From an uncultured Chloroflexia bacterium (lineage in GTDB: Bacteria; Chloroflexota; Limnocylindria; Limnocylindrales; CSP1-4): a DNA stretch of 64,000 bases. Where the stretch lies: NCBI GenBank assembly GCA_963842695.1, contig CAWJHK010000006.1:344391-408390 (forward strand), written 5' to 3'. The position numbers and the translations under genes were made by a program. The notes below the pieces were generated by a model that was given only the letters and a program-made list of their open reading frames with translations, did not search any database and was not told the DNA's origin. The number at the start of each line of letters is the position of its first letter. The first letter of the stretch is position 1. Positions 338 to 54,502 of this stretch are shown piece by piece.

Positions 338-339
338 CG

Positions 340-30453: not shown

Positions 30454-31398
30454 TCAGTCAAACATGCCCAGCGGACAATGGGCGGTGACGATGACGTTGG
30501 GCATGTCGACGATCTCGCTGATCCGCAGATCGACCGCCACGCTGCAGAGCAGGTAGGCCTCCACCGCCGCGAGACCGTGCTCACGCCCGAGCCAGTCGAT
30601 CATCCGTCGCGTCGCGTCGCGGGCGGCGGTCATCAGGTCGGGCCCGACGCCATCGGTGGCATAGCGGGGTCCCGATCGGAGCGTGGAATTGGGGTCGGCG
30701 GCGGCCACGAACTCGGGGGCCGTGACGTGCAGATCCTTGCGGACGGTCAGCCGCACGACCGCCTTCATCGGCGTCTCGATGGCGGTCCCGCAGACCTCGC
30801 CGTCGCCCTGTGTCGCGTGGCCGTCACCGATCGAGAACCGGGCGCCCGGCACGAAGACGGGGAGGAACAGGGTCGAGCCGACGACGATGTGGCGGGTGTC
30901 CATGTTGCCGCCGTGGACGTCGGGCGGGATCGTGCTCAGCGGCCCCGCCCGTGGCGCGACGCCCATCTCCCCGCAGAACGGCGCGAGTGGGACGTAGATC
31001 CCGGGCCAGAACTCGGTCACGCCAGACCGCCCGGGCACCGGTGTGACCTTGTACAACGGGTCGGGGAAGTCGTCGGCCAGCAGCCCGAAGCCGGGGATGT
31101 TGGCCGTCCATCCCCAGTCCGCCGGCTCCAGGTCGACGACGTCGACCTGGAGGGTATCGCCCGGCTCCGCTCCGGCGACCTCGACCGGCCCGGTGACCTG
31201 GTCGACACGCTCGAAGTCGAGCGTCTCCAGGTCGGCGGTCGTGGACTCCGCCGTCAGCTGGCCGTTCGACGCGTCGAGGCAATCGAAGGCGACCAGCTCC
31301 CCGGAGGCCACGGCCGCCACGGGCGGGATGGCCGGGTCCCAGGCCAGGTGGTTCTGCTCCCGCCCGACGTGGATCGACGGCGTGTCGTTGATCGGCAT
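30454..31398 (-). CDS. acetamidase/formamidase-family amidase
   Basis: The product reads MPINDTPSIHVGREQNHLAWD...GPVEVAGAEPGDTLQVDV...HGGNMDTR...FSIGDGHATQGDGEVCGTAIE... The frame is intact. Confidence 0.8.
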   Translation of the reverse strand: MPINDTPSIHVGREQNHLAWDPAIPPVAAVASGELVAFDCLDASNGQLTAESTTADLETLDFERVDQVTGPVEVAGAEPGDTLQVDVVDLEPADWGWTANIPGFGLLADDFPDPLYKVTPVPGRSGVTEFWPGIYVPLAPFCGEMGVAPRAGPLSTIPPDVHGGNMDTRHIVVGSTLFLPVFVPGARFSIGDGHATQGDGEVCGTAIETPMKAVVRLTVRKDLHVTAPEFVAAADPNSTLRSGPRYATDGVGPDLMTAARDATRRMIDWLGREHGLAAVEAYLLCSVAVDLRISEIVDMPNVIVTAHCPLGMFD

Positions 31399-31400
31399 GA

Positions 31401-32912
31401 TCAGGCGGTCGGGGCCGCAGCGACCGCCGGCTCGTCGGGCTCGTCCGTCTCGCCCATCGCCTCCCGGACCGAGCGGAGCTTGTCGCGCTCCCGGGCCCAG
31501 TAGTACAGGCCGATGACGATCCCGATCAGCATCCAGACCCCGACCAGCGGCGGCACGTACGAGTAGGGCTCGCCGAGCGGCGCCAGCTCTGAGGTCGAGG
31601 ATCGGCAGCGTGACGCCACCGAGGACGCCGAAGAATGCCGGGATCATCAGGATGAACCCGATGATCGGCACGACCAGGTGCTTGAGCCAGCTGAACTCGT
31701 CCCGCTGCTCGCGCCAGAAGTAGCCGATGGTCGGCGAGGTTCACCGCCATGTACATCGCCGGCGAACGAGAGACCGATCGCGTAGCCGATCGTGACGTAC
31801 GTGTTGAGCGGCCCCGGCATGTCCGGGTACTGGTTGCCGAGGAACAGGCTGAGACCGACGGCGATGACGATCCCGATGATCGCCTGCAGGTGGATGGCAG
31901 TCGCCGGCGTCCGGTGCTCGGGGTGGACCGTGCCGAACACCGGCGGGATGAGCCGCGAGCGCCCCAGCGCGAAGACCGAGCGCGTCGATGCGTTCGCTCC
32001 GGCGTTGGCGTTGGCCAGACAGCTGTTGATGATCGCGATCGTGACCAGGTAGCTGCCGATGCCGGGCAGCACCTCCTCGGCCATGCCGCCCCACGGGTTG
32101 CCGTCGTTCGCGGCGAAGAAGTCCTTCATCTTGTCCGGACCGAAGTAGACGGTCGCGGCGTAGTAGCAGAACACGTAGAAGATCCCGATCAGGATCGCCG
32201 ACCAGACGATCGCCCGACGGGTGTTGCGCTTCGGGTCGCGCGTCTCCTCGGCAAGCGGCGCCGCGCCTCGAAGCCGACGAAGGCGAGCAGGCAGAAGACC
32301 ATGCCCTGGAGGGCCGGCTGGATGCCGCCGTCACCGGGGATGAACACCGACGCGGTGTTGCGGCTGCCCGCGTTGATCACCAGCAGCGCCGAGACGAACG
32401 ACCATGATCGCGATCTCGATCAGCCCGAGGGCCACGCCGACGCGCGTCGAGATCGAGATGCCGCGATAGGTCAGGTACCAGACGATGCCGGCACACAACA
32501 GGGTCAGCGGGACCCACAGGTATTCCTGCTCGTAGCCGGTCAGCTCGGTGATGAACGCAGCGCCGAAGAAGCCGAACGCCCCGAACAGGACGGCCGGAAC
32601 GACGATCGACGCGAGCAGGAACGCCCACGCCAGCAGCCAGCCGGCATACGAGCCGAGGCCCCGCCCGACGTAGGTGTACATCCCGCCGGCCGACGGCAGG
32701 TGTCGGGCGAGCTCGCCCATCGAGAACGCGGTGAACAGCACGGCGATCAGCGCGAGCAGCACCGCGAGCGGCGTGAGCCCCAGCGCGAGCGTCGTCGCGA
32801 AGCCGATCGACAGGGCGACGGCGACTGCCGGCGCCATGAACGTGATCGACTGGAACAGGACCTCGGTCAGACCGATCGCATTCCGTTCCAGACCCTGGTC
32901 ACGCGCGGCCAT
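31401..32912 (-). pseudogene. APC-superfamily amino-acid/amide permease; at least 5 frame breaks
   Basis: The N-terminus is MAARDQGLERNAIGLTEVLFQSITFMAPAVAV...GGMYTYVGRGLG... Further transmembrane segments are scattered over all three minus frames, including ...INAGSRNTASVF..., ...FCYYAATVYFGP... and ...VPIIGFILMIPAFFG... The C-terminus is ...WARERDKLRSVREAMGETDEP. The stop lies 2 nt before the formamidase ATG. Confidence 0.75.
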
Positions 32913-33027
32913 CCGATCCTCCCTTCGACCCGCGCCGATCGGTAGGACCCCCCGCCTGCGACGGATCAGGACGCAGTCTATGCAGCCGGACGCCCCGGGG
33001 GAAGAGGGGGTGGTCACGATCGACGCG

Positions 33028-33041: not shown

Positions 33042-33760
33042 ATGTGCGAGCACTTCGTGGCGCGGTCGGCCGCGCTCGTTCCGGCTCGACGTGCTGTGGC
33101 CGTTCACCGAGCGGCTGGAGCGCTTCGGGATCGCCGGCTTCGGCTGGGGAGCCTCCTGGCTCGGCCCGGACGGCCGGCTCGCCTCGTACCGCGACCTGCG
33201 AGCGTTCCGTGACGATCCCGGACGGGAGGATGTCGGGCCCGATCGAGACGACGGCCGCCCTCGTCCATCTCCGCCGTCCGTCGCGCCTCTCGACGCTGAC
33301 GGTGCCGGACACGCAGCCGTTCGACGACCCGGCCGGGCGCTATGCCTTCAGCCACAACGGCGACCTGCGCGATTACCGATCGCTCAGGACCGCGTACCGG
33401 GCTGCGGGCCGCATCCACGGCAGGGCCGACACGGAGGTCGGGGCGCGCTGGCTCGAGGACGCGTGGAGGGAGGACCTGCCGGTCGGCGAGCTGCTCTGCT
33501 CACTCCACGAGCGGTTCGGCGGCCAGGCGAACCTGGCCGTGCTGACCGCCGACGGGACGCCGTATCACTACGCAGGGAACGGGGAGAACCCGGTCTTCGC
33601 CTTCCGGCTCGACGGCATCGGGATCGCGTCGACCGGGATCTACTCCCTCGATCGGTCGCTCTTCCGCTACGTCGTTCCCGGCGCCCGGGAGCGACATGTC
33701 GTCCCGCTGCGGACGACCGTCACGCTCGACCGTAACGGGAACCGATCAGCCGCGTCATAG
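33042..33760 (+). pseudogene. class-II (Ntn) glutamine amidotransferase, YafJ-like; 2 frame breaks
   Basis: The N-terminus MCEHFVARSAA... carries the Cys2 nucleophile. The protein continues with FRLDVLWPFTERLERFGIAGFGWGASWL..., then ...TAALVHLRRPS...PDTQPFDD...FSHNGDL... The breaks are near 33078 and 33240. Confidence 0.75.
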
Positions 33761-37151: not shown

Positions 37152-37209
37152 GCGTGCGATGGGCATGCAAGGCTCATCGAGCATTCGACATCACGAGGGG
37201 GTACGACAC

Positions 37210-38004
37210 ATGAAACGACTCGGATTCCTGTTCAGCCTCGTCTTCACCGCCAGCCTCGTCCTGGCGGCCCCGGTCCTCGCGGCGGTCCCATCGAACGACC
37301 TGCTCGCCGGGGCGACGCCTGTGACCCTCGGGTTCAGCGCATCACTTGACACCACCGAAGCGACGACCGACGCGGACGACGCCGACGCGAACGCCAACTG
37401 CGGAGCACCGGCGACCGACGCCAGCGTCTGGTACAGCCTCGTGGGAGGCGACACCGGTGTCGTCGTCGATGTCAGCAGCTCCGACTACAGCGCCGGGGTC
37501 ATCGTCGTGAGCGGCAGCCCCGGCAGCTTCGTGCTGGAGAACTGCGGGCCGGGCGCCACGCAGTTCTTCGCGGCATCTGGCGTCACGTACTCGATCCTCG
37601 CCTTCGACGACCAGCAGGACGGCTCCGGCAACGGCGGCACGCTGCAGATCAACGTTACCGACGTCCCGCCACCGCCGGACGTCGACGTCACGGTCGATCC
37701 GGTCGGGCACTTCAACAAGGACGGCACGGCGACCATCTCCGGCAGCGTGACGTGCTCCGGGGATGCATTCGACAACTTCATCGACGTCCAGGTCCGTCAG
37801 TCGGTCGGGCGGTTCATCGTCAACGGCTTCGGCTTCACGGACTTCCCGTGTGACGGTGCCACCCACGCCTGGAGCGCCCAGGTGTTCGGCGACAACGGCA
37901 CCTTCAAGGGCGGCCGGACGGCGTCGGTGACGACCGCCACGGCCTGCGGCAACTTCGACTGCGGCCAGGACTTCGAGGAGACCACCGTCAAGCTGCGCAA
38001 GTAA
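37210..38004 (+). CDS. secreted protein, paralog B
   Basis: The signal peptide is MKRLGFLFSLVFTASLVLAAPVLAA. The two-domain layout matches paralog A, with the same PPPP linker and a C-domain motif TVD..G.F.K.G.A.I.G...C.G....V.Q.VGR.FI.G.G......C....AWS..V.G.NG.F.GG. Confidence 0.75.
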   Translation: MKRLGFLFSLVFTASLVLAAPVLAAVPSNDLLAGATPVTLGFSASLDTTEATTDADDADANANCGAPATDASVWYSLVGGDTGVVVDVSSSDYSAGVIVVSGSPGSFVLENCGPGATQFFAASGVTYSILAFDDQQDGSGNGGTLQINVTDVPPPPDVDVTVDPVGHFNKDGTATISGSVTCSGDAFDNFIDVQVRQSVGRFIVNGFGFTDFPCDGATHAWSAQVFGDNGTFKGGRTASVTTATACGNFDCGQDFEETTVKLRK

Positions 38005-38185: not shown

Positions 38186-39022
38186 GTGGCCGATGGAACC
38201 GTCATCATCATCGGCGGCGCGGAGGACAAGGTCCGCGACCGCGTGATCCTGAGCCGCTTCGTCTCGCTCGCCGGCGGCGAAGACGCGACGATCGCGGTGA
38301 TCAGCACCGCTTCGTCCCTCGGGCTCGAAGCCGGGGAACGGTACCGAGCCATCTTCGGCGAGCTCGGGGTCCGCAAGGTTCGGCCGCTCCACGCCGTGAC
38401 TCGCCCGCAGGCCAACGACGACGGCGCCGTCCGGGCGGTCCGCGACGCGACCGGCGTGTTCCTGACCGGAGGCAACCAGCTCCGGCTGTCCTCGACGATC
38501 GGCGGGACCCTGCTGGCCGACACCATCCTCGACCGATTCCAGCACGGCGCGGTCGTGGCCGGGACGTCGGCCGGAGCGTCGGCCATGTCGAGCCACATGA
38601 TCGCCTTCGGGGCGTCCGGAGCGACCCCGAAGCACCGGATGGCGCAGATCGCCGCCGGCCTCGGGGTCCTGCCCGGGGTCATCGTCGACCAGCACTTCCA
38701 GCAGCGGAACCGGCTCGGCCGGCTGCTCAGCCTGATCGCCCAGAACCCCAGCCTGCTCGGTCTCGGGGTCGACGAGGACACCGCCGGCGTGGTCGGCCCG
38801 GACCACGTGATGGAGGTCATCGGCCGAGGCTCGATCACCGTCGTCGATGGGGCTCGGTCGGAGACCGACGCCTGGGAGATCCACGGCCACCGCCCGTTGA
38901 TGATCAGCGGGGTGGTGCTCCACTCGCTGCCGTCGGGGTATCGCTTCGACCTGCGCCGGCGCGAACGTGTCGCGACGCCGACCCTTCATGCCCTCCCCGG
39001 CGGCGAGGCCGCCTCGAGCTAG
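38186..39022 (+). CDS. cphB: cyanophycinase (peptidase S51), no signal peptide
   Basis: The start is GTG. The product reads MADGTVIIIGGAEDK...FLTGGNQLRL...VAGTSAGASAM...GVIVDQHFQQRNRLGRLL...GLGVDEDT... TATCCT (38149-38154) and GGGAG lie upstream. Confidence 0.85.
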   Translation: MADGTVIIIGGAEDKVRDRVILSRFVSLAGGEDATIAVISTASSLGLEAGERYRAIFGELGVRKVRPLHAVTRPQANDDGAVRAVRDATGVFLTGGNQLRLSSTIGGTLLADTILDRFQHGAVVAGTSAGASAMSSHMIAFGASGATPKHRMAQIAAGLGVLPGVIVDQHFQQRNRLGRLLSLIAQNPSLLGLGVDEDTAGVVGPDHVMEVIGRGSITVVDGARSETDAWEIHGHRPLMISGVVLHSLPSGYRFDLRRRERVATPTLHALPGGEAASS

Positions 39023-39047
39023 GACGCCCCTCCGCAAACGCCGCGCC

Positions 39048-39547
39048 TTATCCGCCGCCGCCCATCGAGGTCGAGAGCGCGATCGACTGGGGCTTGAGGA
39101 GCGCGAGGTAGATCGGGCAGCGATCCCGCCACGCCGCGAGCATCGCCTCGACACGATCCTGCGGGGATGACGACGTGACCGGATGTCGAGCGCCAGGTCC
39201 GAGAGATCCGGGGCGGCGCCATCCAGGCCGAGCAGGCCCCGGGCGTCGGCCGAGCAGCGTGCGACCGCGGTGATGTCCTCGATCGTGACGTCGAACTGGG
39301 GCGCGAGGGTGTCGTTGAGGAACGCGACGCCACAGCCGGCCAGGGCACCAAGCAGGTACGCCGTCGGGCTCGGTGCGAGGTTCTCGCCGCCCAGGGCGAG
39401 CGGGAGGTCGGCGTCCCAGTTGAACGGGCCGGCCGACAGGCGCGCACGCCCATTGGCGAGGGTGGCGGTCACCGCCGGCGCGGATCGCGCCGACGCCGGG
39501 TCGGTCCGGAAGCGGGTCTCGGTCTCTGCCAGCACGGTCGCAGCCAT
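39048..39547 (-). pseudogene. OsmC-family peroxiredoxin-like protein; one frame break
   Basis: The product reads MAATVLAETETRF...GGENLAPSPTAYLLGALAGCGVAFL... and continues in another frame with ...VTSSSPQDRVEAMLAAWRDRCPIYLALLKPQ... The break is near 39185. Confidence 0.7.
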
Positions 39548-39699
39548 CTCCAGGTGCCTCCGTTGCGTGCCACCCGACGTGGGCGGCCGCAGCGACCGTA
39601 GACGGCGGACGCCCGGCGACGGAAGCGTGCCACCACCCAATCCGGGTCGCGTCGCGACGTCGCCGATGGCGGCCGGCACGTAGCCGCGCCGCACCTGCC

Positions 39700-40819
39700 T
39701 CAGGCGAGCTGCTGTCGGAGGTACTCCGCAACGGCGGCCGCACGGGCAGCCGTCCCGCTGAGACCGAGCTTCGCGTAGACGTTCGAAAGGTGACGCTCGA
39801 CCGTTCGAACGCTGAGCGTCAGGGCAACGGCGATCTGCTCGTTCGTCCGGCCCTCCGCGGCGAGCCGGAGGACCTCGACCTCGCGTCGCGAGAGCGCTTC
39901 GGTGATCCGCTCCGGGCGCTCGTCGTAGGCCTGTCGTTCGGGCTCGAGGAATGCCTCGACCTCGCCGATGAAGACCCCCCACGCCGGCTCGTCGGCCAGC
40001 AGGATGTGGTTCCGACTCTCGAGTGGCACGAGGCGCGCGCCCGGGATCAGCGAGGACACGCTGACGGCATTGTCGAAGGTGTTCGACCGATCGCCGATCG
40101 ACTGGAGCACGATGGTCGGGGCCGTGATGCGACCGAGGTCGTCCTCGAGGTCGACCTGCTGGCGGGCGATTTCGGCTGGCCACGGCGTTGGCCGGTGATG
40201 TCGACATCCGCTGGAGGTCGTCGAACCAGCGCATCTGCTCCTCGGTCGCGTCGGGGATGAACCTCGTCGTGAACACGCGCCGGAATGCGGGATCCTCCCT
40301 GGCCCAGCCGACCTCGATCATCTTCCGGTAGGTCTCTTCCTCGACGAGCTGTTCGGGCGTAAAGGCGATCGGTTCGCCGCAGACGGTGCCGTTCAGGATC
40401 AGCCGGCTGACGCGTTCCGGGTGGGCGATCGCGTAGGCCAGGGCGACGCCGGACCCGCCCGACATGCCGAGGAGCGCGAACCGCTCCAGGCCGGCCGCGG
40501 CCACGATCGTCTCGAGGTCGGCGAGGCGGGCTCCGAGCGAGAAGTCGTCGACCGTCCAGTCCGACAAACCGAAGCCCCGCTCGTCGTACCGGACGACCGT
40601 CGCGAGCGACCCGAGCTGCTCGAGGAAGTGACGCCAGACCGGGCTCTGCCAGTCGTACTGGAGGTGGCTGAGCCAGCACGACGCGACCACCAGCGGGGGA
40701 CCACTGCCGTGGACGGCGTAGGCGAGGCGGACGCCGTCCGGCGCACGGCAGAACTTGATCTGCTGGTCCCGCGAGCCGAACGGCCCTGCGGGCGCGACCG
40801 CTGTCGATCTGGCCGTCAT
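39700..40819 (-). pseudogene. alpha/beta-hydrolase domain fused to a C-terminal LuxR-type HTH; one frame break
   Basis: The N-terminal domain reads MTARSTA...IKFCRAPDGVRLAYAVHGSGPPLVV...FALLGMSGGSGVALAYA... (nucleophile elbow GMSGG). The C-terminal domain reads ...[44 protein letters not shown]. The break is near 40170. Confidence 0.8.
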
Positions 40820-40828
40820 GGCACCGCC

Positions 40829-40834
40829 ATCGTA
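40829..40834 (-). promoter_or_regulatory. -10 box TACGAT, 9 nt before ATG 40819 (leaderless regulator candidate)
   Basis: The minus strand reads cgTACGATggcggtgccATG. Confidence 0.4.
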
Positions 40835-40851
40835 CGGCGATGCTCAAGCCC

Positions 40852-40867
40852 GCCGGGCATGCCCGGC
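40852..40867. promoter_or_regulatory. perfect 16-bp palindrome GCCGGGCATGCCCGGC between the LuxR-type regulator and cphA
   Basis: It is centred in the 119-bp divergent intergenic region. It sits about 18-33 nt upstream of the regulator -10 and about 38 nt upstream of the cphA -10 candidate. Confidence 0.5.
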
Positions 40868-40904
40868 ACGGCGTGAGGTCGTATCCGTCGACCGGGGGAG
40901 CCGA

Positions 40905-40910
40905 TACACT
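40905..40910 (+). promoter_or_regulatory. -10 candidate TACACT for cphA (about 21-nt leader with AGGAGGG)
   Basis: The sequence is ccgaTACACTcggggtccgcagcgagcAGGAGGGcgacGTG. Confidence 0.35.
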
Positions 40911-40938
40911 CGGGGTCCGCAGCGAGCAGGAGGGCGAC

Positions 40939-43833
40939 GTGGCGCAGGCGGGACCCGCACGCCGGACCGCGAAGGCAAAGGCGACGGACGGCAACGGCTC
41001 CGGGACCTCGCGGTCATCGACCACCCGCCGCTCGACGCCGGCCCCGACGGCCGGCCCTGCCCCGACCCTGCGGATCCTCGAGACCCGGGTGCTGCGCGGC
41101 CCGAACTACTGGGCGCGCGAGCCGGTCATCCGCCTGCTGGTCGACCTCGGCGTCCTCGAGCAGTACCCGTCGAACACGCTGCCGAACTTCACCGACGCGC
41201 TGGTCGCGCTGCTGCCGACGCTCGAGGACCACGCCTGCTCGCTCGGTCGCCGCGGCGGGTTCATCACCCGTCTCCGCGACGGGACCTGGGCCGGCCACGT
41301 GGCCGAGCACATCGCGCTCGAGTTCCAGAACCTCGCCGGCACCGACGTCCGTCACGGCAAGACCCGCTCTGCCGGCAAGCCCGGCCAGTACAACTGCATC
41401 TTCGAGTACCGCGAGGAGGCGGTCGGGCTCGAGGCCGGGCGGATGGCCGTCGCCCTCGTCAACCACCTCGCCGCGCCGGACGACCCGGACGCCTTCTTCG
41501 ATTTCGCGCCGGAGATGGAGCGGCTCATCCGCCTCGCCGAGCGCCAGGCGTTCGGGCCGTCCACCCAGGCCCTGATCGACGAGGCGGTCAGCCGCGACAT
41601 CCCGTTCTTCCGCCTCGACCGCCACTCGCTCGTCCAGTTCGGGCACGGCGTCCACCAGCAACGGATCCGGGCGACGATGACCTCGCAGACCTCGGCGATC
41701 GGGGTCGACGTGGCGTCGGACAAGAGCCTCACCAACCGGCTCCTCGACTCGGCCGGGCTGCCCGTCCCACGGGCCGACGTCGTCGACACCGAGGACGGTG
41801 CGGTCGCCGTCGCGCGGCGGCTCGGCTTTCCGTGCGTCGTCAAGCCGCTCGACGGCAACCACGGCCGCGGCGTCCACCTCGACCTGCGGTCCGAGGAAGC
41901 CGTCCGCGCGGCCTTCCACGGCGCGCTTGCCCAGAGCCGCGGCGGCGACGTCGTGGTCGAGACGTACGTCGCCGGCAACGACTACCGCTGCCTGGTCATC
42001 GGCGGCAAGGTGGCCGCCATCGCCGAGCGCGTGCCGGCATCGGTCACCGGCGACGGTGAGCACACGGTCCGGGAGCTGGTCGACATCGCCAACAGCGACC
42101 CGCGGCGCGGGATCGGGCACGAGAAGGTGCTGACCCGCATCTCGGTCGACGCGGCGGCCGAGGAGCTCGTCCGCGCGCAGGGCCACGGATGGACGACGTG
42201 CTGCCGGAGGGGACCTGGGTCAAGCTGGCCCTGACCGGCAACATGTCGACCGGCGGCACGTCGATCGACCGGACGATCGAGGCGCACCCCGACAACGTCG
42301 AGATCGCCGAGACGGCCGCCCGGATCGTCGGGCTCGACGTGGCCGGCATCGACTTCATCTGCCCCGACATCGCCACGCCCGTCCGCGAGACCGGCGGAGC
42401 GATCGTCGAGGTCAACGCGGCACCCGGCTTCCGGATGCACACCCATCCGACCGAGGGCGAGCCGCAGTACGTCGCCCGCCCGGTCATCGACTCGCTGTTC
42501 CCGGCCGGGTCGTCGGCCCGGATCCCGATCCTCGCGGTCACCGGCACGAACGGGAAGACGACGACCGTCCGGATGATCGCCCACATCCTCAAGCTCATGG
42601 GCCGGCGGGTCGGGATGACCTCGACCGACGGCATCGTCATCGACGGCCGGCTGATCAAGAAGGGCGACATGTCCGGGCCGAAGTCGGCCCAGATGGTGCT
42701 CCAGAACCCGACCGTCGACACCGCGGTGTTCGAGGTCGCCCGCGGCGGGATCCTGCGCGAGGGCCTCGGCTACGACCGGAACGACGTGGCGGTCGTGACC
42801 AACGTCACCGGCGACCACCTTGGCCTCGGCGGGATCGACTCGATCGGCCAGCTGGCGAACGTCAAGGGCGTCGTCGTCGAGGCCGTCCCGCGCTCGGGGA
42901 CGGCGGTGCTCAATGCCGACGACAGCCACGTGTACCGGATGGGCCGCCACTGCGCCGGGCGGGTCGTCCTGTTCAGCATGGCCACCCAGAAGGGCGAGGA
43001 TGGCTACGACCGGGTCGACGGTCACACCAGCCGTGGCGGGGCGGCCTTCCGCCTCGAGCCGTCGAACGAGGGCGAGCTGATCGTCCTGCGGCTCGGGTCG
43101 CGGACGATGCCGGTCCTGTACACCCACCTCATCCCGGCCACGTTCGGCGGCCGGGCGCGGATGAACGTCGCGAACGCGCTGGCCGCCGCGGCCGCGGCAT
43201 GGGCCGCCGGGGCGCACCTCCACGACATCCGGCAGGGCCTGCGCACGTTCTCGACGTCGTTCTTCCAGGCGCCCGGCCGGCTGAACCTGGTCGATGTCGG
43301 TGGCGTCCGCGTCTTCATCGACTACTGCCACAACGTCGACGGCATGCGCCAGCTGGCCGACTTCGTCGAACGGATGATGGTCGACATGCCGAAGAAGTCG
43401 GGACGGGTCGGTCCTCCCGCCAACGGCTCGCGGACGGGACGGGCCATCGGCGTGCTCGGCATCCCCGGCGACCGCCGCGACGACGACCAGCGCGAATACG
43501 GGGCGATCGCGGCCGGCGCCTTCGACGAGATCATCGTTCGCGAGGACGCGAACCTGCGAGGACGCGAGCCGGGCGAGACGGCATCCAACGTCGTCGAGGG
43601 CGTGCGGGAGGCGCGGGCCGCGGGGACGGCACGGGTCGGGAAGGCGGAGAAGGTGCTCGACGAGATGGCCGCCGTGCGGGCCGCGCTCCGGCGCGCGATG
43701 CCCGGGGATCTCGTGGTGTGCTGCGTCGACGATGCGGTCGCTGTGTACCGCGAGGCGATGGCCGCAGCCGGCACCTCCCGCGGCGGGCACGGCCTTCGCG
43801 GACCCCGGCGAGCTGGAAGCCCCCGAGGGCTGA
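40939..43833 (+). pseudogene. cphA: cyanophycin synthetase (N + ATP-grasp G + Mur-ligase-like M domains); 2 frame breaks
   Basis: GTG 40939 follows a strong SD. The domain order is ...LRILETRVLRGPNYWAREPVIRL... (N), ...VVKPLDGNHGRGV...NMSTGGTSIDRT...EVNAAPGFRMH... (G), then ...ILAVTGTNGKTTT...TNVTGDHLG...LNADD... (M). The breaks are near 42187 and 43797. The reconstructed end is ...GTAFADPGELEAPEG with TGA at 43831-43833. Confidence 0.9.
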
Positions 43834-43929
43834 CGGCCCGGGCACGCGTGCCGGTCGCGCGTCTCAGGCGCGCATTCACGAGATCCGATCCTGGCTCCGG
43901 CACGACGCGCCCCAGGAGCGCATCCCTAG

Positions 43930-43998
43930 CATCCGAGCGTGGCTCCATCCAGAAACGGAACGGATCTGTCGGAATCGACGACGCGGCACGCTCGGATG
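43930..43998. repeat. perfect 12-bp inverted repeat (CATCCGAGCGTG ... CACGCTCGGATG) with a 45-nt spacer, between the convergent cphA genes
   Basis: The arms are at 43930-43941 and 43987-43998. The enclosed sequence is locally AT-richer (agaaacggaacggatctgtcggaatcga). A separate 12-bp palindrome GGCACGCGTGCC at 43841-43852 follows the cphA stop. Confidence 0.5.
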
Positions 43999-44043
43999 TT
44001 CGAGATCCGCGCCTGTGCGGCGCGTCGGCCTCGACGTGGCGAA

Positions 44044-45801
44044 CTACCCCCGCCGCGGACGACCCTGGAGGCGCGGGACCAGCTCCGTCAGCTCGGATCC
44101 GACGTCGACCGGCCGCGCCCCGACCTCGTGCAGGAGGTCGAAGACGCCGTCCCGTTCCTCGTGGCACATCAGCACGATCACGCGAGCCGAGTCGGGGCGC
44201 CGGCCGTCGCCGCCCGCGCCCCCGTTGAGCTCGGCGCGGAGGGCGATCGTCTCGGTCTCGTAGACGGGCACGTCGGCAACGGATCCGCCGCCGGCGACCA
44301 CCCCGGCCAGCAGCTCTCCGACGACCGACTTCGCCGTCCGTCCGCGAAGGTACTTGCGGGTCTCCTTGATCGCGACACGCTGGGCTCGCTGGGCGGCGAT
44401 CCGGCCGATGCCGCGGAGCGTATCGTCCGGCCGGTCGCCGGCGGTCCCGATGATCGCGGTGATCGGAGCGGTCCTGCCGGCCGCACCCGCGGCGATGCCC
44501 TCGGCGACGTCGAGCACGGCCGCCACGCCCGCCTCGTTGTGGGCGAAGTCGACGATGACGACCCTGGCCCCCAGCCGGAACAGGTTGAGACGGCCCGGCG
44601 ACCGCTCGGCGCTCGGTGCGAAGTCGGTCAGGCCGTCGCGGACCTCGTCGATCGTCGCGCCGAGGCCTCGGGCCCCGCCGGCCGCCGCCAGCGCGTTGGC
44701 GACGTTGTGGCGGGCCAGGCCGCCGATCGTGATCGGGACCCGGCCGACCTCGACGATCTCGGTCACCGCCTCGCCGTTGGCCTCGACCATCGAGCCGTCC
44801 CGGACGAAATAGGCACGGCCGCCCCTCGATCGATGCCGGCGCACGACCGCGCGACCGGTCGCCATCGAGGCTGAACAGGGCGACGTGCGCCCGGACGCGG
44901 CGGGCCATCGCGGCGACGTGCGGGTCGTCGGCGTTGAGGACGACCCAGCCGTCGGGCTTCGTGATCCGGCAGATCGTCGACTTGACCTCGGCCAGCTCCG
45001 GGAGGGTATGGATGCCCTGGAGGTCGAGGTGGTCGGACGAGACGTTCGTCAGCACACTCGCGTCGTTCGACTCGTAGCCGACGCCGCGGAGGACGATCCC
45101 TCCCCGGGCGGTCTCGAGGACCGCCACCTCGACATCGCGCCGGGCAAGGACAATCTGGGCCCCGCCGGGCCCCGTCCAGTCGCCCGGGTCGACCATTCGC
45201 TCGTCCACGAGAACGCCGTCGGAGGTCGTCGTGCCGACCCGCCGCCCGGCCCGCAGCAGGACGTGGGTGATCAGCCGGGTCACCGTGCTCTTGCCGTTCG
45301 TGCCGGAGATCGAGACGAGCGGGATCGTCCGGCGGTCGTCGCGGATCCACTCGGGCGGAGTGGTCCGGGCCTCCGCGATCCGCTCCGTCCAGCGTGCGAG
45401 CAGCCGGTCCTGCGCCCCGGTCAGGCGGGCGCCGCGGGCCGGTGAGACGTCGCGCTCGGTCAGGGCAATGGACGCCTCGGTCAGCGTCAGCGCCCGCTCG
45501 GCGCCGGACCACGGAAAGGTCACGATCCAGTGGCCGGGGTCGGACGAGCGATGGACGCCCAGCCCGCGTCGTCCCTCGCCGTGATCCGCGCGCAACCGCC
45601 GGAGCCAGGCGACGATGGCCGCCACCTGGTCGGGCCAGTCGCGCGCCGGCACATTGGCGCCGAGCTGTACCAGCGCGTGGCGGCCCGGGTCGCGCTGCCC
45701 GTACCACGTCCGCCGGCGCCCGACCGCGACCTCGAGCTTGACCACCGGCTCGAGCCGGTAGACGTTGGGCCCCTCGAGCAGGCGGGTCTCGACCAGACGC
45801 A
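44044..45801 (-). pseudogene. cyanophycin-synthetase-like protein with N and Mur-ligase-like M domains only (no ATP-grasp domain); one frame break
   Basis: The N-terminus VRLVETRLLEGPNVYRLEPVVKLEV... parallels the CphA N-domain. About 190 aa later the M domain begins directly: ...IPLVSISGTNGKSTVTRLI...TNVSSDHLDLQG...VLNADDPH... The C-terminal lobe follows in a second frame: ...HNVANALAAAG...SPGRLNLF......VIVDFAHNEAG... The break is near 44868. I chose GTG 45801 over ATG 45847. Confidence 0.75.
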
Positions 45802-45810
45802 CGGTCCGGG

Positions 45811-45816
45811 CAGGAT
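45811..45816 (-). promoter_or_regulatory. -10 box TATCCT, 9 nt before GTG 45801
   Basis: The minus strand reads ttgcTATCCTgcccggaccGTG. Confidence 0.35.
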
Positions 45817-45831
45817 AGCAAGGTCGAAGGG

Positions 45832-45837
45832 CTAGAC
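45832..45837 (+). promoter_or_regulatory. -10 box TAGACT, 8 nt before ATG 45846 (leaderless candidate)
   Basis: The sequence is gggcTAGACTgcgcgccATG. It is back-to-back with the minus-strand box 16 nt away. Confidence 0.4.
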
Positions 45838-45845
45838 TGCGCGCC

Positions 45846-47087
45846 ATGACGGCTTCGACCTCCCAGCTCCCCACGCCCGCCACGACCGAGCTCGACGCCC
45901 TCCGCGCGGCCATTGCGGCCGACCTGCCGGCCTACCTCGACGACCTCGAGGAGCTCGTCAACATCGATTGCGGAAGCTACACGCCCGACGGCGTCGACCA
46001 GATCGGGCGGTGGGTCACGACGTTCCTGGCCGAGCTCGGCGCCCAGGTCGAGGCGCGACCCGACCCTTCGGGCCGGTTCGGATCGACGATCGTCGGCACC
46101 ATCGACGGCCAGTCCGGCGGACCCCGGGCGCTGCTGATCGGTCACATGGACACTGTCTTCGACCCAGGGACAGCGGCGGAGCGCCCATTCCGCATCGACG
46201 ACGACGTTGCCTACGGCCCGGGCGTGACTGACATGAAGTCCGGGCTCCTGGCCGGCCTCTACGCGCTGAAGGCGATCATCGGGCAGCGCGGCGGGATGCC
46301 GTTCGAGCGGGTCGTCTTCGTCGCCAACCCGGACGAGGAGATCGGGTCGGTCACCTCCACGCCGCACATCGAGGCGCTGGCCGGCGACGTGGACGTGGCA
46401 CTCGTGCTCGAGTGCGCGCGAGCCAATGGCGACATCGTGTCCGCTCGCAAGGGGATCGTCGACCTCCGGATCGTCATCAACGGCCGCGCCGCGCACGCCG
46501 GCGTCGAACCGGAGAAGGGTCGCAGCGCGATCCTCGAGGCCGCCCGGATCGTCGAGGACCTGCACGCGCTCAACGGTCGGTGGCCCGACGTGACCGTCAA
46601 CGTCGGCGTGATCACCGGCGGCACGCGGTTCAACGTGGTTCCCGAGCGCTGCGCCCTGGACGTCGACATCCGTGCGACATCGCGGGCGGCCCTCGAAGCC
46701 GCGGAGGCGGAGGTTCGCTCGGTCGCGGCGGCGACCGAGGTGCCGGACACGACCGTCGGAGTCGAGGAGCTGAACCGCTGGTGGCCGATGGAGAAGCTCG
46801 AGCGGAGCGGACGCCTCGTCGAGCACGCCCAGGCCGTGGCCGGTTCGCTCGGCTTCGCGGTCGCGGACGCCTCGACGGGCGGTGCGTCCGACGCCAACAC
46901 GACATCCGGGATGGGTGTCCCGAGCCTCGACGGCCTCGGCCCGATCGGCGGCAACGATCATGCCCCGACGGAATACCTCGAGGTCGATTCGATCGTGCCG
47001 CGCACGACCCTGCTGGCGGGGCTCCTGCTGGCGATCGCCGCCGACCCGGAGGTTCTCGCCTGGCGCGACGGTCAGCCCGGAGGATGA
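45846..47087 (+). CDS. M20-family metallopeptidase (carboxypeptidase G2-like)
   Basis: The product reads ...ALLIGHMDTVF...GPGVTDMKSGL...FVANPDEEIGS...RKGI......GRAAHAG...GGASDAN... The frame is intact. Confidence 0.85.
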   Translation: MTASTSQLPTPATTELDALRAAIAADLPAYLDDLEELVNIDCGSYTPDGVDQIGRWVTTFLAELGAQVEARPDPSGRFGSTIVGTIDGQSGGPRALLIGHMDTVFDPGTAAERPFRIDDDVAYGPGVTDMKSGLLAGLYALKAIIGQRGGMPFERVVFVANPDEEIGSVTSTPHIEALAGDVDVALVLECARANGDIVSARKGIVDLRIVINGRAAHAGVEPEKGRSAILEAARIVEDLHALNGRWPDVTVNVGVITGGTRFNVVPERCALDVDIRATSRAALEAAEAEVRSVAAATEVPDTTVGVEELNRWWPMEKLERSGRLVEHAQAVAGSLGFAVADASTGGASDANTTSGMGVPSLDGLGPIGGNDHAPTEYLEVDSIVPRTTLLAGLLLAIAADPEVLAWRDGQPGG

Positions 47088-47485
47088 GCGAGGAGCCGGC
47101 CGGCCGGCGGCGGGTCTCGTCGGGCGGACCATGGGAGGCCGTCGCCGGCTACAGCCGGGCAATCGTCGTCGGCGACTCGTGCTGGGTCGCGGGTACGACT
47201 GACGCAGGGCCGGACGGTCAGTCGACTCATCCGGGTGACATCGGGGCACAGACGCGGGCGACCCTCGGGATCATCGAGCGCGCGCTCGGCGAGGCCGGCT
47301 TTGCGTTGACCGACGTCGTCCGCACGCGGATGTTCGTGACGGACATGACGCGCTCGGCCGAGGTCATCGCCGTCCACGGCGAGGTCTTCGGCGAGATCCG
47401 GCCGGCGGCCACCCTGGTCGGGGTCACCGCCCTGATCGAGCCGACGGTGTTGATCGAGATCGAGGCCGACGCTCAGCGCGGCTGA
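47084..47485 (+). CDS. RidA/YjgF-family protein
   Basis: The ATG overlaps the M20 stop (ATGA). The product reads ...YSRAIVVGD.CWVAGTT...GDIGAQTRATLGIIERAL.EAGF.L.DVVRTRMFVTD... Confidence 0.8.
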   Translation: MSEEPAGRRRVSSGGPWEAVAGYSRAIVVGDSCWVAGTTDAGPDGQSTHPGDIGAQTRATLGIIERALGEAGFALTDVVRTRMFVTDMTRSAEVIAVHGEVFGEIRPAATLVGVTALIEPTVLIEIEADAQRG

Positions 47486-47508: not shown

Positions 47509-47853
47509 TCAGCCGGGGATCTCGGCCAACCCGGCCGTTCGCGCGATGGCCACGATGGCGACGGCCGCGACCAGGCCGAGGAACAGGTTCCGCCGGCGAG
47601 CGACGATCGCCAGGCAGACGAAGACCGCCACCCACTCGATGCCGACGTGGAACGACGGCACGTCGTCGTCACCGACGACGACCATCACGCTGACCGCGGC
47701 CAGCGCGGCAAGGACCGCCGGGCCGACGAGCTGGAGATAGGCGAATGCCACCCGGGGCAGCCGGTCGAGGCCGGGCGTCAGAAGGCCGACCGCCCGGAAG
47801 GGGTAGGTGACCGCGAACATCAGCACGGCCAGCAGGACGAGGTTCGTGCTCAT
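47509..47853 (-). CDS. azlD: branched-chain amino-acid transport protein AzlD
   Basis: The product is 114 aa and very hydrophobic: MSTNLVLLAVLMFAVTYPFRAVGLL... Confidence 0.75.
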   Translation of the reverse strand: MSTNLVLLAVLMFAVTYPFRAVGLLTPGLDRLPRVAFAYLQLVGPAVLAALAAVSVMVVVGDDDVPSFHVGIEWVAVFVCLAIVARRRNLFLGLVAAVAIVAIARTAGLAEIPG

Positions 47854-48679
47854 CGCGGCCCGTCCCCGGTAGAGGTCTCGCCGTGGACGTGCGCATCGGG
47901 CATGAGGTACCGGTTCGCGGACTCAAGGCTGCCGAGAGGCGCCGTCTCCGCCGCAAGCGCCTTTGGAACGAGCAGGCCCGGCGAACGGCCCGACCACGCC
48001 GCCGGCGACGATCCCGATCGCCGGGCTGGACGCCAGCGCCACGCCCACGGCCACGCCCGCCCCGACGATCGCGGCAACGAGCTCGCGGCGACCGGTGATC
48101 AGCCCGACCGCCAGGCCGATCATCGCGGCCGGGAAGATGACGTCGATCCCGATGCGCGCCGGATCCGGGATCTGCGCCCCGAGCACGACCCCGGTCAAGG
48201 TGGCGAGGTTCCACGGGATGAACGTGCAGGCGATCGCCCCGACCCAGTAGCCCCACGGGTCGCCCCGGCCGATGCGCCGGAAGTGGCTGATCGCGAGGGC
48301 GAAGGACTCGTCGGTCAGGAAGTGCGCCATCGCCGCCCGGCGCGGCAGCCCGACATCCCGCAGCCACGGCGCGAGGGCGGCCGAGTAGAGGACGTGCCGT
48401 GCGTTGAGCAGCGCGGTCAGGACGATGATGCCCGGCCAGGCGAGGCCGCTGGCCACGTAGCCGACCGCGGCGAACTGGGCCGCGCCGGCGAACACGATCG
48501 TGCTCATCGCCATGGCCTCGACGACGGAGAACCCGGCCTCGCGGGCGGACAGGCCGTAGACGAACCCGAACCCCATCGCGGAGACGGCGATCCCGATCGC
48601 GTCGGTCGCCAGCTGCCGGCGGCTGGCCTTGAGGTCGGGGGTGGCGGCGTCGCTCAGCGCAGGTACGTCTTCCCGCACG
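47850..48679 (-). pseudogene. azlC: AzlC-family branched-chain amino-acid permease component; one frame break; start uncertain
   Basis: The product reads ...GFGFVYGLSAREAGFS..EAMAMSTIVFAGAAQFAAVG... The tail continues in another frame to a stop overlapping the azlD ATG. The break is near 47980. The candidate start GTG, near 48679, overlaps the upstream small gene. Confidence 0.7.
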
Positions 48680-48926
48680 TCCCGTCGCACACGACGAAGA
48701 CGGCTCGCTTCTCCGCCCCGTAGCCCGCCGCATGGAGGAGGCCGGCGCAGCCCTTCGTCGGGCACTTCCAGACCCACCAGCGCTCGTGCGCGTCGAGCGG
48801 CGTGGCCTCGGCCGCCAGCACGCCCGCAAGGTCGGAGCGGGCCTTCACGAGCCCTGCGATCCGCGTGGCGCGCTCCGCCTCGGATTCACTCGTGTATGGG
48901 TAGTTCTGGGCGACGTTCGAGCTCAC
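48654..48926 (-). CDS. small Cys-rich (zinc-ribbon-like) hypothetical protein, 90 aa
   Basis: GTG 48926 follows GGAG. The product has ...WKCPTKGCAGLLHA...VVCDGTCGKTYLR, a CxxxxC...CxxxC pattern. Confidence 0.45.
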   Translation of the reverse strand: MSSNVAQNYPYTSESEAERATRIAGLVKARSDLAGVLAAEATPLDAHERWWVWKCPTKGCAGLLHAAGYGAEKRAVFVVCDGTCGKTYLR

Positions 48927-49034: not shown

Positions 49035-50715
49035 TCACCACGAAGCCGGGATCCCGTCACTCCGCGGGTCGGTGACGGCCAGAAGGGAGCCCTCGGGGGA
49101 CCCCGGGCCGCCCTCGATGAGCTCGATCCCGTGCTCCTGGCCGAGCTGCGGATCGAAGGGCGCGACCAGGGTCACGGGATGACCCAGGTCCTCCAGGGCG
49201 GTCGCCATCCCGGTCGGGATCCGCGGTTCGATCCGCACCTCGACCGGCGGCTCGAAGTGGCGTTCCGGCTCGACGAACCAGCGTGGGGCTGAGATCGCGG
49301 TCCGCAGGTCGACCCCTCCATCGACGAGCGCCGACACGAGCTGAGCGTGGATCTGCGGCTGGGCGTCACCGCCTGCGGCGCCGGCCACGACCCATGGTGT
49401 CGGGACTCCGTCACGGAACAGCATCCCGGGGAGCAGCGTGTGGAGCGTCCGCTTGCCGGGCTCGAGGAGGTTCGGGTGATCGGGGTCGAGGCTGAAATAG
49501 CTCCCGCGGTTCTGGTACAGGATCCCCGTCTGTCGGGTCGAGCACTCCGGAGCCGAACGTCCAGTAGAGGGACTGGATGAGGCTGACCGCGTTGCCGTCG
49601 CGGTCGACTGCGGCGAGGTAGACGGTCCCGCCGCCGGCCGGGTTGGTCGCCGAGGCCGGGATGGCGGCGCGCCGACGGTCGATGCGCGACGCAAGCGCCG
49701 CGGCGTAGGCCGGATCGAGCAGCCGGTCGACCGGGACGTCGCGGTAGGCCGGGTCGGTCAGGTACCGGTCGCGGTCGGCCATCGCCAGCTTGGCCGCCTC
49801 GATGCCCAGCGTGCGTCCAGCCCGGGTCGGTCACGCCTTCAGGCCCGAAGGCGGCCGGCGGTCGGTGGCTCGAGCTGGGCCAGGATCGCCAGGAGCTCGA
49901 GCGCGACGACACCCGGAGCTGTTCGGTGGGTGGGTCGTGACCCGGACGCCGCGATAGTCGATCCCGATCGGCTCGCTCCAGGTCGAGGTGTGGGCCGCGC
50001 AGGTCGTCGCTCGTGATGGCGGAGCCGGCCAGCGCGCACCCGCGCGCTGCCGCTCGGCGAGATCACCGTCGTAGAACGCCGCGAAGCCCTCGTCGGCGAT
50101 CGCTGCCAGCGTGTCCGCAAGCGCCGGCTGGCGGACCCGCTCCCCGGGCCGCCAGGCTCGACCGGCCATCCGGCCAAGGTCCGGGTGAAGAATGGTGCCG
50201 GCGCCGACGGCCGCGGCCGCTCAGCGGCGTCATCGCGCTCGACGATGTCGGCGAAGTCGAGCCGATGCGGGCACGCCGTCCCTGCCAGCTCGATGGCCGG
50301 GGCGAGCAGCGTCGCGCGCGGCAGCCGCCCGAACCGCTCATGAGCGTCGGCCCACGAGCGGACCGCGCCCGGCACCGTGATCGACAGCGGGCCGTGGAGC
50401 GGGATCGCGTCGAGGCCCGACGCCCGGAGGGACCGCGCGTCGGCGGCGGCGGGCGCCCGGCCCGAGCCGTTGAGCGCGACCTGCGTCGCGGCGGCTGCGT
50501 CCCAGATCAGCCAGAACGCATCGCCGCCGATCCCGCAGCTGTTGTGGCACGACCACGGACAGGGCAGCGTTGGTGGCGATCGCTGCGTCCACCGCCGACC
50601 CGCCGGCGCGCAGGATCGCGAGGCCCGCGGCGCTCGCGAGGTGATGCGGCGAGACGACCGCGCCGTGGCTGCCGCGCGCGACCGGGACCGGCGCCCACGG
50701 CCGGCCGTCCGTCAC
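49035..50715 (-). pseudogene. ggt: gamma-glutamyltransferase; at least 6 frame breaks
   Basis: Fragments lie in all three frames. They include ...VVSPHHLASAAGLAILRAGGSAVDAAIA..., ...PGAVRSWADAHERFGRLP..., ...GGGTVYLAAVDRDGNAVSLIQSLY.. (the Thr nucleophile context) and ...GKRTLHTLLPGMLF... The GTG start overlaps the stop of the upstream MFS gene. Confidence 0.75.
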
Positions 50716-52015
50716 GCCGACGCCTCTCCGACCCGGACGCCCGTGCCGTCGATGCCGTCGATCTCGTGCTCCTGGCTGCGCAGCCGGTTGAGCGGGACCA
50801 GTGCGACGACGAGCAGGCCCATCGTGGCGAGCAGCATCCCGTCGATGCCGCGCCAGTCGGCCGCGAAGCCGCCGATCAGGCTGCCGGCGATCTGGCCGAT
50901 CGCCAGGAACACCGAGTACAGGCCCATGATCGCGCCGCGATCGGCCGGGAAGCGCTCGGAGATGTCGGCCAGGAGCCCGAGCGCCGCCGGCGTCGCCCCG
51001 GCCAGGACGAACAGGCCGACCCCGGCGAGCAGCGATCGCGCCCGCCAGGAGCGCCAGCGGGAGCCCCGCCGAGTGGTTGACCACCAGCCCGCCCCGACGA
51101 GCGCCCCGCCGCCGATGATCCCGTACAGGATGATCGTCGTCCGCCGCATCGACTTGAAGCGGTTGCCCCAGTACAGGAGCCCGACGCCGAAGACGATGGC
51201 GATGACGATCGCGGCGGCGGTGATCTGGTTGGCATCGAAGCCCCGCATCAGGGTCTGGTCGGGGAACGCCGGGTTGGCCTGCGAGAACTGGAACAGCGAC
51301 TGGCTGAACCACAGCCCGATGCTGGCGTTGAGCGCGATCCAGGTCGGCGCCAGCAGCAGGACGTGCGACGAGCGGACGAGCGCGAGCGTACCGGCCGAAG
51401 CCGACGTGCGGCGACGCGACCGCCTCGGCCTCGCCGGCCGGATCCTTGACCCCGCGCCAGTAGATCGAGGAACGAGATCCCGTAGACGACGGCGTTGAGG
51501 AAGAACGCGTTCGGTCCGATCGCCTCGAACAGCTTCGGCGCGACGATGAAGCCCGACGCCGAGCCCGGCCAGCGTGGCGCCCTCGAAGCGGGCCGCCGCC
51601 TTGCCGCGCAGCAGCTCGTTGCCGGCGGTCGCCAGCGCGATGAAGCCGAGGATCGACGGGCACGCTGGCGGCGGTCGAGGCGCCCTCGAGCAGCCGCGTC
51701 GCGGCGAGGACCGGCAGCTGGACCGTCAGCCCGGTGATGATCACGGCGATCCCGCCGAAGATCGGGCCGTAGAGCATCACCCGGTGGTGGCCGAACCGGT
51801 CGGACAGGATGCCGAAGATCGGCGACAGGACCAGCTCGGACAGGTAGAACACCGCGGCGAAGATCCCGACGACGGTCGCGTCGACCGGCTCGCCACCGTG
51901 CGCCGGCAGGTCGGCCAGGTAGAGCCCGAGCATCGCGCCCGGTCAGCCCGGTGCTGAAGCGGAGCGTGAAGGTGCCGAGCAGGACGAACCGGAGGGATCG
52001 CTCCATCGGCGGCAT
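50712..52015 (-). pseudogene. MFS transporter; at least 5 frame breaks
   Basis: The N-terminus is MPPMERSLRFVLLGTFTLRFSTGLTG... Further fragments are ...SPIFGILSDRFGHHRVMLYGPIFGG... and ...FLAIGQIAGSLIGGFAADW..., spread over three frames. Confidence 0.7.

Positions 52016-53220: not shown

Positions 53221-54502
<1,282 letters not shown>

Follow-up and report, generated by a model that had tools for sequence, protein, structure and literature searches.

A CphA-like gene without an ATP-grasp domain in a cyanophycin locus of an uncultured Chloroflexia bacterium and in other phyla

Introduction

Cyanophycin (multi-L-arginyl-poly-L-aspartate) is a nitrogen reserve of bacteria that is also studied as an industrial biopolymer, and its enzymology is regarded as largely mapped, with CphA1, CphA2, the cyanophycinases and the dipeptidases IadA, IaaA and CphZ as its known components. 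Here we analyse a 64-kb stretch of DNA (the window hereafter) from an uncultured Chloroflexia bacterium, contig CAWJHK010000006.1, for which an original prediction, made from the sequence alone, had proposed a cyanophycin locus with a non-canonical set of seven genes at positions 38186-47485. Domain content and gene neighbourhoods bear out this proposal. While cyanophycin metabolism is a known kind of system, the component at this locus for which we found no published description is cphA', a second CphA-like gene that lacks the ATP-grasp (G) domain and is conserved across phyla.

Results

Genes of the cyanophycin locus

All seven genes, with the domains ascribed to them, were recovered with Pfam and NCBIfam profiles and by tblastn against orthologues. 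The first, cphB (38186..39022, + strand), is intact and encodes a protein of 278 aa that matches Peptidase_S51 (E 5e-24) and the cyanophycinase model TIGR02069 (264.9 bits, cut-off 126.6; residues 6-254). Its translation contains the serine motif GTSAG and is 95.7% identical to the 278-aa orthologue of a close relative, L284. Since the TIGR02069 match begins at residue 6, the protein lacks a signal peptide, and by its sequence it is an intracellular-type cyanophycinase. Directly upstream of cphB lies a gene for a secreted DUF6299 protein (37189-37911, +), found in the same position in one relative (contig P0001).

The second component is cphA (40939..43833, +), which codes for the N, G and M domains of CphA1 and ends at a TGA stop (43831-43833). 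Its reading frame is interrupted in this assembly by two frame changes, and it matches TIGR02068 (cut-off 850) as two frameshift-split fragments only, scoring 478.8 bits (model positions 1-364) and 626.5 bits (369-855); the two add up to more than 850 bits, though as scores of separate fragments. The N domain is matched by Cyanophycin_syn (PF18921, E 8e-42), the G domain by ATP-grasp_5/RimK and related families, and the M domain by Mur_ligase_M (E 1.6e-23) and Mur_ligase_C (E 2.5e-12). L284 has an intact 964-aa CphA that aligns colinearly with the product of this gene and shows 89-91% identity to it. The motif Cx19HxxEH, which marks the N domain of a primer-independent CphA1 subclass (PMC9262961), is present, with C72, H92, E95 and H96 invariant in alignment A2, which is headed by the window protein. 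Judged by sequence, cphA encodes a complete, three-domain CphA1 with Cx19HxxEH, a regular member of the group typified by Synechocystis SuCphA1 (PDB 7lg5/7lgj).

Tail-to-tail with cphA, across a 210-bp spacer (43834-44043), lies cphA' (44044..45802, - strand; alternative ATG at 45847), which encodes an N domain and a Mur-like M domain in ~586 aa. The convergent gap between the two genes is variable in relatives, where it can hold DUF2071, hypothetical and Castor/Pollux-type channel-like genes (L001 12049-14731; L284 6182-6937). Divergent from cphA' are an intact M20A metallopeptidase gene (45846..47087, +; 413 aa; Peptidase_M20 E 5e-27, M20_dimer E 3e-24) and a RidA/YjgF gene (47084..47485, +), which is translationally coupled to M20, overlapping its stop in an ATGA, and matches TIGR00004 with E 3.5e-16, below the cut-off; its orthologues match Ribonuc_L-PSP.

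cphA' combines a CphA1 N domain with a complete M domain

Pfam matched Mur_ligase_M and Mur_ligase_C in cphA', and no ATP-grasp family matched its window fragments or any of 20 family members. Against TIGR02068 the match is confined to model positions 475-839 (373.9 bits, cut-off 850), and the gene is 81-86% identical, over two frames, to the intact 587-aa orthologue of L284. PF18921 matched the N domain in none of the 20 members at E<=0.1, nor that of the window protein. Since Pfam is silent on the first ~150 residues, homology of this region was decided by HHalign and Foldseek. HHalign aligned it with the CphA1 N domain at 96.5% probability (E 7e-10, 133 columns), and reciprocal tblastn against the co-resident CphA gave E values of 4e-6 and 7e-7. 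For an AlphaFold (AF2) model of cphA' (pLDDT 87.7), the best PDB matches in Foldseek were SuCphA1 7lg5/7lgj, with a query TM of 0.75-0.76 over ~897 columns, compared with only 0.62-0.63 for matches aligning the M domain alone. By tblastn, profile-profile and predicted-structure comparison, the first ~150 residues are homologous to the CphA1 N domain. In the HHalign alignment, nothing in the G-less family corresponds to the C...HxxEH segment of CphA1. What defines the family is the combination of a CphA1 N domain with a Mur-ligase-like M domain that is complete (both Mcore and Mlid), in the absence of an ATP-grasp G domain.

The M domain of cphA' matches cyanobacterial CphA1 with E 1e-127, on par with CphA1 proteins among themselves, and MurE with E 1e-33. 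Positions conserved at 90% or more in 32 CphA1 M domains are also conserved at 90% or more in 35 G-less proteins, with the exception of S542, which is replaced by Gly; besides this change, three other M-domain positions in the active-site comparison are variable. Kept in both groups (Su numbering) are the P-loop GTNGKT, E558, R561, D585-H586, K602, N618/D621, R731 and D745/H748/N749, and the catalytic motifs are invariant in 20 diverse G-less members. In a neighbour-joining tree, the G-less M domains form one clade (bootstrap 84/100) apart from the CphA1 enzymes encoded beside them; because of this single, separate clade, the sequences point to an old family in its own right, as opposed to truncations that happened recently and repeatedly.

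Literature searches for a G-less CphA paralogue found no published description. Compared with CphA1, cphA' shares the N-domain fold, the whole M domain, the N-M arrangement and the conserved M residues except S542, and differs in having neither the G domain nor the N-domain hydrolase motif and in its separate M clade. The cyanobacterial dipeptide polymerase CphA2, which acts on beta-Asp-Arg, is likewise a reduced CphA paralogue beside CphA1 with a non-catalytic N domain, but the reduction is opposite: in CphA2 the G domain is active and the M domain truncated and inactive (PMC10273328), whereas in cphA' it is G that has been lost, the M domain being complete, with Mur_ligase_C and intact motifs. 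The tandem cphA/cphA' pairs of beta-proteobacteria (Nitrosomonas europaea, L070) also place a second CphA-like gene next to cphA, but both of their copies match G and M. With MurE, other Mur ligases and PgsB/CapB the window protein has in common the Mur_ligase_M/C folds, the P-loop, the DH motif and the conserved lysine, but it scores far weaker against them, and a CphA-type N domain replaces the UDP-MurNAc-binding N-terminal domain.

cphA' is linked to cphB-cphA in several phyla

A search of 1.8 billion cluster representatives returned many full-length relatives of cphA' (530-600 aa, 36-45% identity), and intact G-less homologues number in the thousands. The neighbourhood survey shows the N+M gene to be a conserved partner of cphA and cphB far beyond this genome; the contig of one distant member, P0139, was at 2.2 kb too short to inform on its neighbours. 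Among Chloroflexota (Limnocylindria-like, Thermomicrobiales) and Actinomycetota (Kribbella, Terrabacter and Nocardioides-like metagenome-assembled genomes, MAGs), cphA' is convergent to cphB-cphA or a few kb from it in 11 of 11 informative loci. Every one of 76 Kribbella species has cphA within 10 kb of cphA', and 75 of the 76 have cphB there as well. Lysobacterales (Luteimonas, Pseudoxanthomonas, Lysobacter) carry a same-strand cphB-cphA-cphA' operon in ~33/33 informative loci, and the same G-less architecture follows cphA in the myxobacterium Plesiocystis, in a Steroidobacteraceae MAG and in Rubrivivax. The positional link between cphA' and cphB-cphA extends over at least four phyla, and the arrangement recurs in dozens of species-level genomes, far beyond chance.

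The surroundings of cphA' vary between lineages. Actinobacterial cphA' genes have no M20 gene nearby; in Actinomycetota, cphA' directly follows, in the same orientation, a fabG/fabI-like (mabA-inhA-type) pair of short-chain dehydrogenase/reductase genes (L006 8481-9983, L011 8403-9984, L014 755-2332, L015 8232-9968). Lysobacter and Plesiocystis clusters with the G-less paralogue also hold a canonical iadA upstream of cphB (L270 3081-4262, L274 3102-4265, L062 2915-4099), so some lineages combine the paralogue with a classical dipeptidase.

Nine loci of the Limnocylindria-like clade seemingly carry cphA' and M20 without cphBA, with a PotABCD-like ABC importer in between, often together with an arginase-family gene. 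Their value as a sign that cphA' and M20 are independent of cphA is weakened by L104, where the 3' end of cphA reappears directly past the inserted transporter. In this subclade the importer, which comprises SBP_bac_8, two permeases and an ATPase with TOBE_2, stands between cphA' and the expected cphBA site (L093 58-7323, L106 3662-6510; also L094, L096, L097, L104, L108 and L156) and is accompanied by DUF2071 and, in five loci, by an arginase-family gene. Such an arginine/polyamine-themed neighbourhood is reminiscent of the logic of the aot/CphZ operon.

The M20-RidA pair, its flank and the dipeptidase question

The M20 protein aligns with CPG2 (1cg2) over residues 21-397 (E 6e-43). Because its score against the glutamate carboxypeptidase model PRK06133 of NCBIfam (294.9 bits) falls below the cut-off of 349, its substrate is not assignable by homology. 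Given the GTG start of cphA' at 45802, the divergent spacer between cphA' and M20 (45803..45845) measures 43 bp, and the alternative ATG starts of the two genes overlap in a CATG (45845-45848). The corresponding spacer measures 53 bp in L001 and 60 bp in L284, and divergent spacers of this length argue for shared regulation of cphA' and M20.

We surveyed 80 species-level Limnocylindria-like loci carrying an M20 orthologue, with denominators that differ by feature. In 58 of 71, cphA' is directly divergent from M20, and the full cphB-cphA-cphA'-M20 set is found within 10 kb in 36/53. RidA adjoins M20 in 51 of 76 loci, AzlCD is present in 59 of 69 and gamma-glutamyltransferase (GGT) in 50 of 60, while seven of 53 carry M20 without any cph gene. 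The placing of the M20/RidA pair in the island thus holds for the Limnocylindria-like clade in its link to cphA', but the pair is equally tied to AzlCD and GGT, and it is missing from actinobacterial and Lysobacterales clusters.

The flanks had also been named as an AzlCD exporter and a GGT, and tblastn with the L001 and L284 proteins confirmed both. AzlD (47509-47853, -) and AzlC (about 47923-48700, -; AzlD-AzlC block 47509..48777), the latter with one frame change, are 70-91% identical to these queries. GGT (49035..50715, -), detected with the L001 protein (PF01019), has several frameshifts, with high-scoring segment pairs in three frames. A conserved open reading frame (ORF) for a 90-aa Cys-rich protein with CxxC-type cysteine pairs (48657-48926, -) invariably separates AzlC from GGT in the clade and has no Pfam or NCBIfam match.

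A further claim was that no isoaspartyl dipeptidase of the IadA or IaaA type is present. E. coli IadA and IaaA queries gave no tblastn match at E<=1e-3 in the 64-kb window, and neither gene was found within 10 kb of the cluster in ~95 related Chloroflexota loci or in 80 Kribbella loci; as positive controls, the same queries detected 16 IaaA and 8 IadA genes beside cphA in other loci. An amidohydrolase at 2125-3249 was rejected as IadA, as it scores as dihydropyrimidinase/allantoinase-like and has no IadA tblastn match. No AstE/AspA-type (CphZ) family appeared in a general Pfam scan of the island and near-flank proteins, in which no dedicated CphZ search was included.

A second association of M20 with cphA' may be present in L002, a JGI metagenome contig on which an M20 gene (4175-5320) lies three genes upstream of a G-less cphA' of 40% identity (8001-9740). 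This association is possibly independent; the contig is too short to reveal cphA.

The hydrolase-LuxR and OsmC genes form a portable module

Between cphB and cphA lie two co-directional genes, a fusion of an alpha/beta-hydrolase with a LuxR (GerE) domain (39700..40831, -) and, downstream of it, an OsmC-like gene (39048..39547, -). The fusion is a single gene, since the hydrolase fold runs across its frameshift; it matches Abhydrolase_1 (E 7e-14) and GerE (E 8e-17) in two fragments and is 87-88% identical, in two frames, to the intact 377-aa P0271, its intact orthologues measuring 373-377 aa. The OsmC-like gene matches Pfam OsmC (E 6.5e-4, N-terminal fragment) and the OsmC-related NCBIfam model (E 1.4e-8), and is 92-93% identical, in two frames, to the intact 167-aa OsmC of L284.

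The original prediction regarded the fusion as the system's own regulator, a claim that did not survive comparison. The pair occurs in none of the clusters of 80 species-level relatives of the clade, an identical insertion between cphB and cphA is seen in one close relative only, L284 (87% identity), and in L285 the pair stands at another locus amid unrelated genes. We therefore reject a dedicated cph regulator. The two genes are a portable module that landed between cphB and cphA in a narrow subclade, and the regulator most likely serves OsmC.

Frameshifts across the window

The window has a GC content of 72%, and the proteins most closely related to its own carry the names Chloroflexota, Candidatus Limnocylindrales or Limnocylindria. 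A third-position GC (GC3) frame plot together with ORF fragments revealed frame changes with the coding signal kept in many genes across the 64 kb (e.g. 33042-33742, 49038-52006, 53221-54499 and 56400-60500), most densely at 49-52 kb and 56-60 kb. Such a distribution is in keeping with an unpolished long-read MAG, and gene calls anywhere in the window require indel-tolerant translation. The island contains five frame disruptions in four genes: one in OsmC (~39179), one in the hydrolase-LuxR gene (~40171), two in cphA (~42190-42228 and ~43787) and one in cphA' (~44851). We compared island and non-island genes by counting frames at the protein level against intact orthologues from two relatives, L001 and L284, and found frame changes equally frequent outside the island, in AzlC, GATase (two), GGT, MFS and GDH. 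With blastn, the window and L284 (79-87% identity) align with many compensating gaps, which made an indel run-length statistic uninformative.

None of the frameshifted island genes has internal stops or large deletions, and their identity to intact orthologues is 81-96%. The cphA shift at ~43787 is an additional G within a G run, after which the +1 frame gives the conserved C-terminus GTAFADPGELEAPEG followed by the stop. Similar fragmentation is seen in several long-read MAG loci of relatives, and orthologues of the island genes are intact in dozens of relatives. Because the shifts are equally spread over island and non-island genes, they are most likely assembly indel errors and not island decay, as judged from their distribution and not from reads, and pseudogenisation confined to the island was rejected on the same ground. 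To this extent the assumption in the original prediction that the cphA genes are not truly inactivated stands.

Other features of the window

An Rfam scan of the whole window gave no match, and a scan of the island for sigma-70 promoters and intrinsic terminators stayed at or below shuffle expectation. Elsewhere in the window, a malate synthase, the dihydropyrimidinase/allantoinase-like amidohydrolase and a 5-hydroxyisourate-hydrolase-like ORF are clustered (307-4129), which suggests purine/ureide catabolism. A locus of non-homologous end joining with Ku and a multidomain LigD (8028-11851) is likewise frameshifted. Genes for an Lhr-type helicase and an Fpg/Nei glycosylase (24912-30129), followed by a formamidase/acetamidase and an amino-acid permease (30457-32924), keep their order in L284.

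Discussion

We consider it reasonably probable that the region is a functional locus of cyanophycin storage and turnover in which cphA' acts as a side-chain ligase in trans, the role of M20-RidA as dipeptidase being the weaker part of this proposal. Since the residues conserved in CphA1 M domains are all kept in cphA' except S542, the protein is expected to be catalytically active with CphA1-M-like chemistry, and the same conservation makes a stand-alone, ATP-dependent ligase of cyanophycin side chains (Arg/Lys) its most likely role as far as sequence can tell. It would act on cyanophycin or poly-Asp ends built by the G domain of CphA1. Without Cx19HxxEH in its N domain it should make no primers, and without a G domain it cannot extend the Asp backbone.

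The last step of turnover, hydrolysis of beta-Asp-Arg, would be supplied by the M20-RidA operon through chemistry of the ArgE/DapE/CPG2 type, analogous to that of the AstE-like CphZ. As beta-Asp-Arg is an N-acyl-arginine and M20 enzymes such as ArgE, DapE and CPG2 hydrolyse N-acyl amino acids, M20 is a plausible, if weak, candidate for the beta-Asp-Arg dipeptidase. It sits at the cluster position often held by a dipeptidase, and its family, like the relatives of CphZ (M14/AstE-like), hydrolyses N-acyl amino acids (PMC9974463, PMC10206079). Its CPG2-like M20A fold is unrelated to those of IadA, IaaA and CphZ, and the candidacy comes from context and family chemistry; M20 is not among the dipeptidase candidates named in the cyanophycin literature that we consulted.

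Several points weigh against this proposal. The near-identity of the M active sites leaves a second M domain beside a complete CphA1 unexplained. According to published work, the CphA1 M domain requires an unmodified C-terminal Asp, and the free ends of this kind on which a trans-acting cphA' would work are assumed. Each proposed step is derived from sequence, structure prediction and synteny, and synteny within the clade, at 60-80% identity, could be inherited gene order and not function. The probable status of the frameshifts as errors is judged from where they fall. As to the dipeptidase, the genome was seen over 64 kb only and a canonical enzyme may lie elsewhere; M20 is not found in the actinobacterial or Lysobacterales cph clusters, in Limnocylindria it is tied to AzlCD and GGT as tightly as to cphA', and seven of 53 loci carry it with neither cph gene.

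These last points lead to the alternative that survives best, and one that we regard as a serious possibility, somewhat short of an even chance. M20-RidA would work with AzlCD, the 90-aa Cys-rich protein and GGT in the salvage or export of amino acids and gamma-glutamyl peptides, and its adjacency to cphA' would be inherited synteny. AzlCD and GGT are as common in the clade loci as cphA', they accompany M20 in the loci devoid of cph genes, and the cph clusters of other phyla do without M20; moreover, CPG2, the closest characterised relative, cleaves off C-terminal glutamate. On the other side, M20 is divergent from cphA' over 43-60 bp, whereas AzlD is convergent with RidA, IadA and IaaA are missing from the clade clusters, and in L002 an M20 with 55% identity to that of the window is found three genes away from a distant cphA'. 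The salvage and dipeptidase readings of M20-RidA are about equally supported.

More far-reaching is the idea that G-less paralogues are a widespread class that alters the polymer, by adding another or an extra side chain or by decorating internal or free poly-Asp, with M20 as a dedicated dipeptidase. We hold this to be doubtful. The original prediction had also proposed a variant polymer; no positive sign of one was found, and the active-site residues of cphA' hardly differ from those of CphA1 M domains. If the idea were true, what is called 'cyanophycin' in Actinomycetota, Chloroflexota and Lysobacterales would differ chemically from the classical polymer, and the CPG2-like M20 of Limnocylindria would join the three known types of dedicated cyanophycin-dipeptide hydrolase as a fourth that is unrelated to them.

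Two narrower alternatives concern cphA' itself, and we think both unlikely. According to the first, cphA' is a subunit that hetero-oligomerises with CphA1 and alters oligomer architecture, processivity or regulation, a role similar to that suspected for the tandem pairs of beta-proteobacteria. The three domains of CphA1 have been described in the cited literature as two catalytic sites and an oligomerisation interface. The retention of the N domain, the strict genomic co-occurrence of cphA' with full-length cphA in Kribbella and Lysobacterales and the predicted N-M arrangement, which superposes on CphA1, would all suit such a subunit; the conservation of all catalytic M residues over a deeply diverged family would be unexpected for a purely structural one. 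The ligase and subunit ideas are mutually compatible.

According to the second, cphA' and M20 are a synthesis and hydrolysis pair of their own for a small aspartyl or arginyl peptide or conjugate, or cphA' adds a different amino acid, with a product unlike classical cyanophycin. The very short shared divergent spacer, kept with the pair in 58 of the 71 clade loci, speaks for this, as do the subclade with an arginase-family gene and a PotABCD-like importer beside cphA', the replacement of S542 by Gly as the sole consistent difference near the active site, and the age and separateness of the G-less family. But outside Limnocylindria cphA' occurs without M20, cphA is almost always near cphA' and in L104 resurfaces at the edge of the locus, and cphA' keeps both the N domain, which in CphA1 holds the polymer, and, S542 apart, unchanged M residues.

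That the island is decaying, so that cphA, cphA', the hydrolase-LuxR gene and OsmC would be true pseudogenes and the cluster would have no function in this organism, is very improbable: the five disruptions in four genes would fit it, but AzlC, GATase, GGT, MFS and GDH are shifted as often, the GC3 coding signal runs through each shift, neither stops nor large deletions occur within the genes, identity with intact orthologues remains high, one shift comes from a G added to a G run, and several related long-read MAG loci are comparably fragmented.

Many genomes with cphA1 have no recognisable isoaspartyl dipeptidase (PMC10206079), and for one such clade the M20 gene provides a concrete, testable candidate. 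With respect to synthesis, the conserved accessory enzyme made of N and M domains only, encoded beside cphA in soil Actinomycetota, Chloroflexota and Lysobacterales, would be a new component of cyanophycin enzymology. As intact cphA' genes are found in the cultured hosts Kribbella, Luteimonas and Pseudoxanthomonas, its function is directly testable, and in heterologous cyanophycin production it may influence yield, chain decoration or composition.

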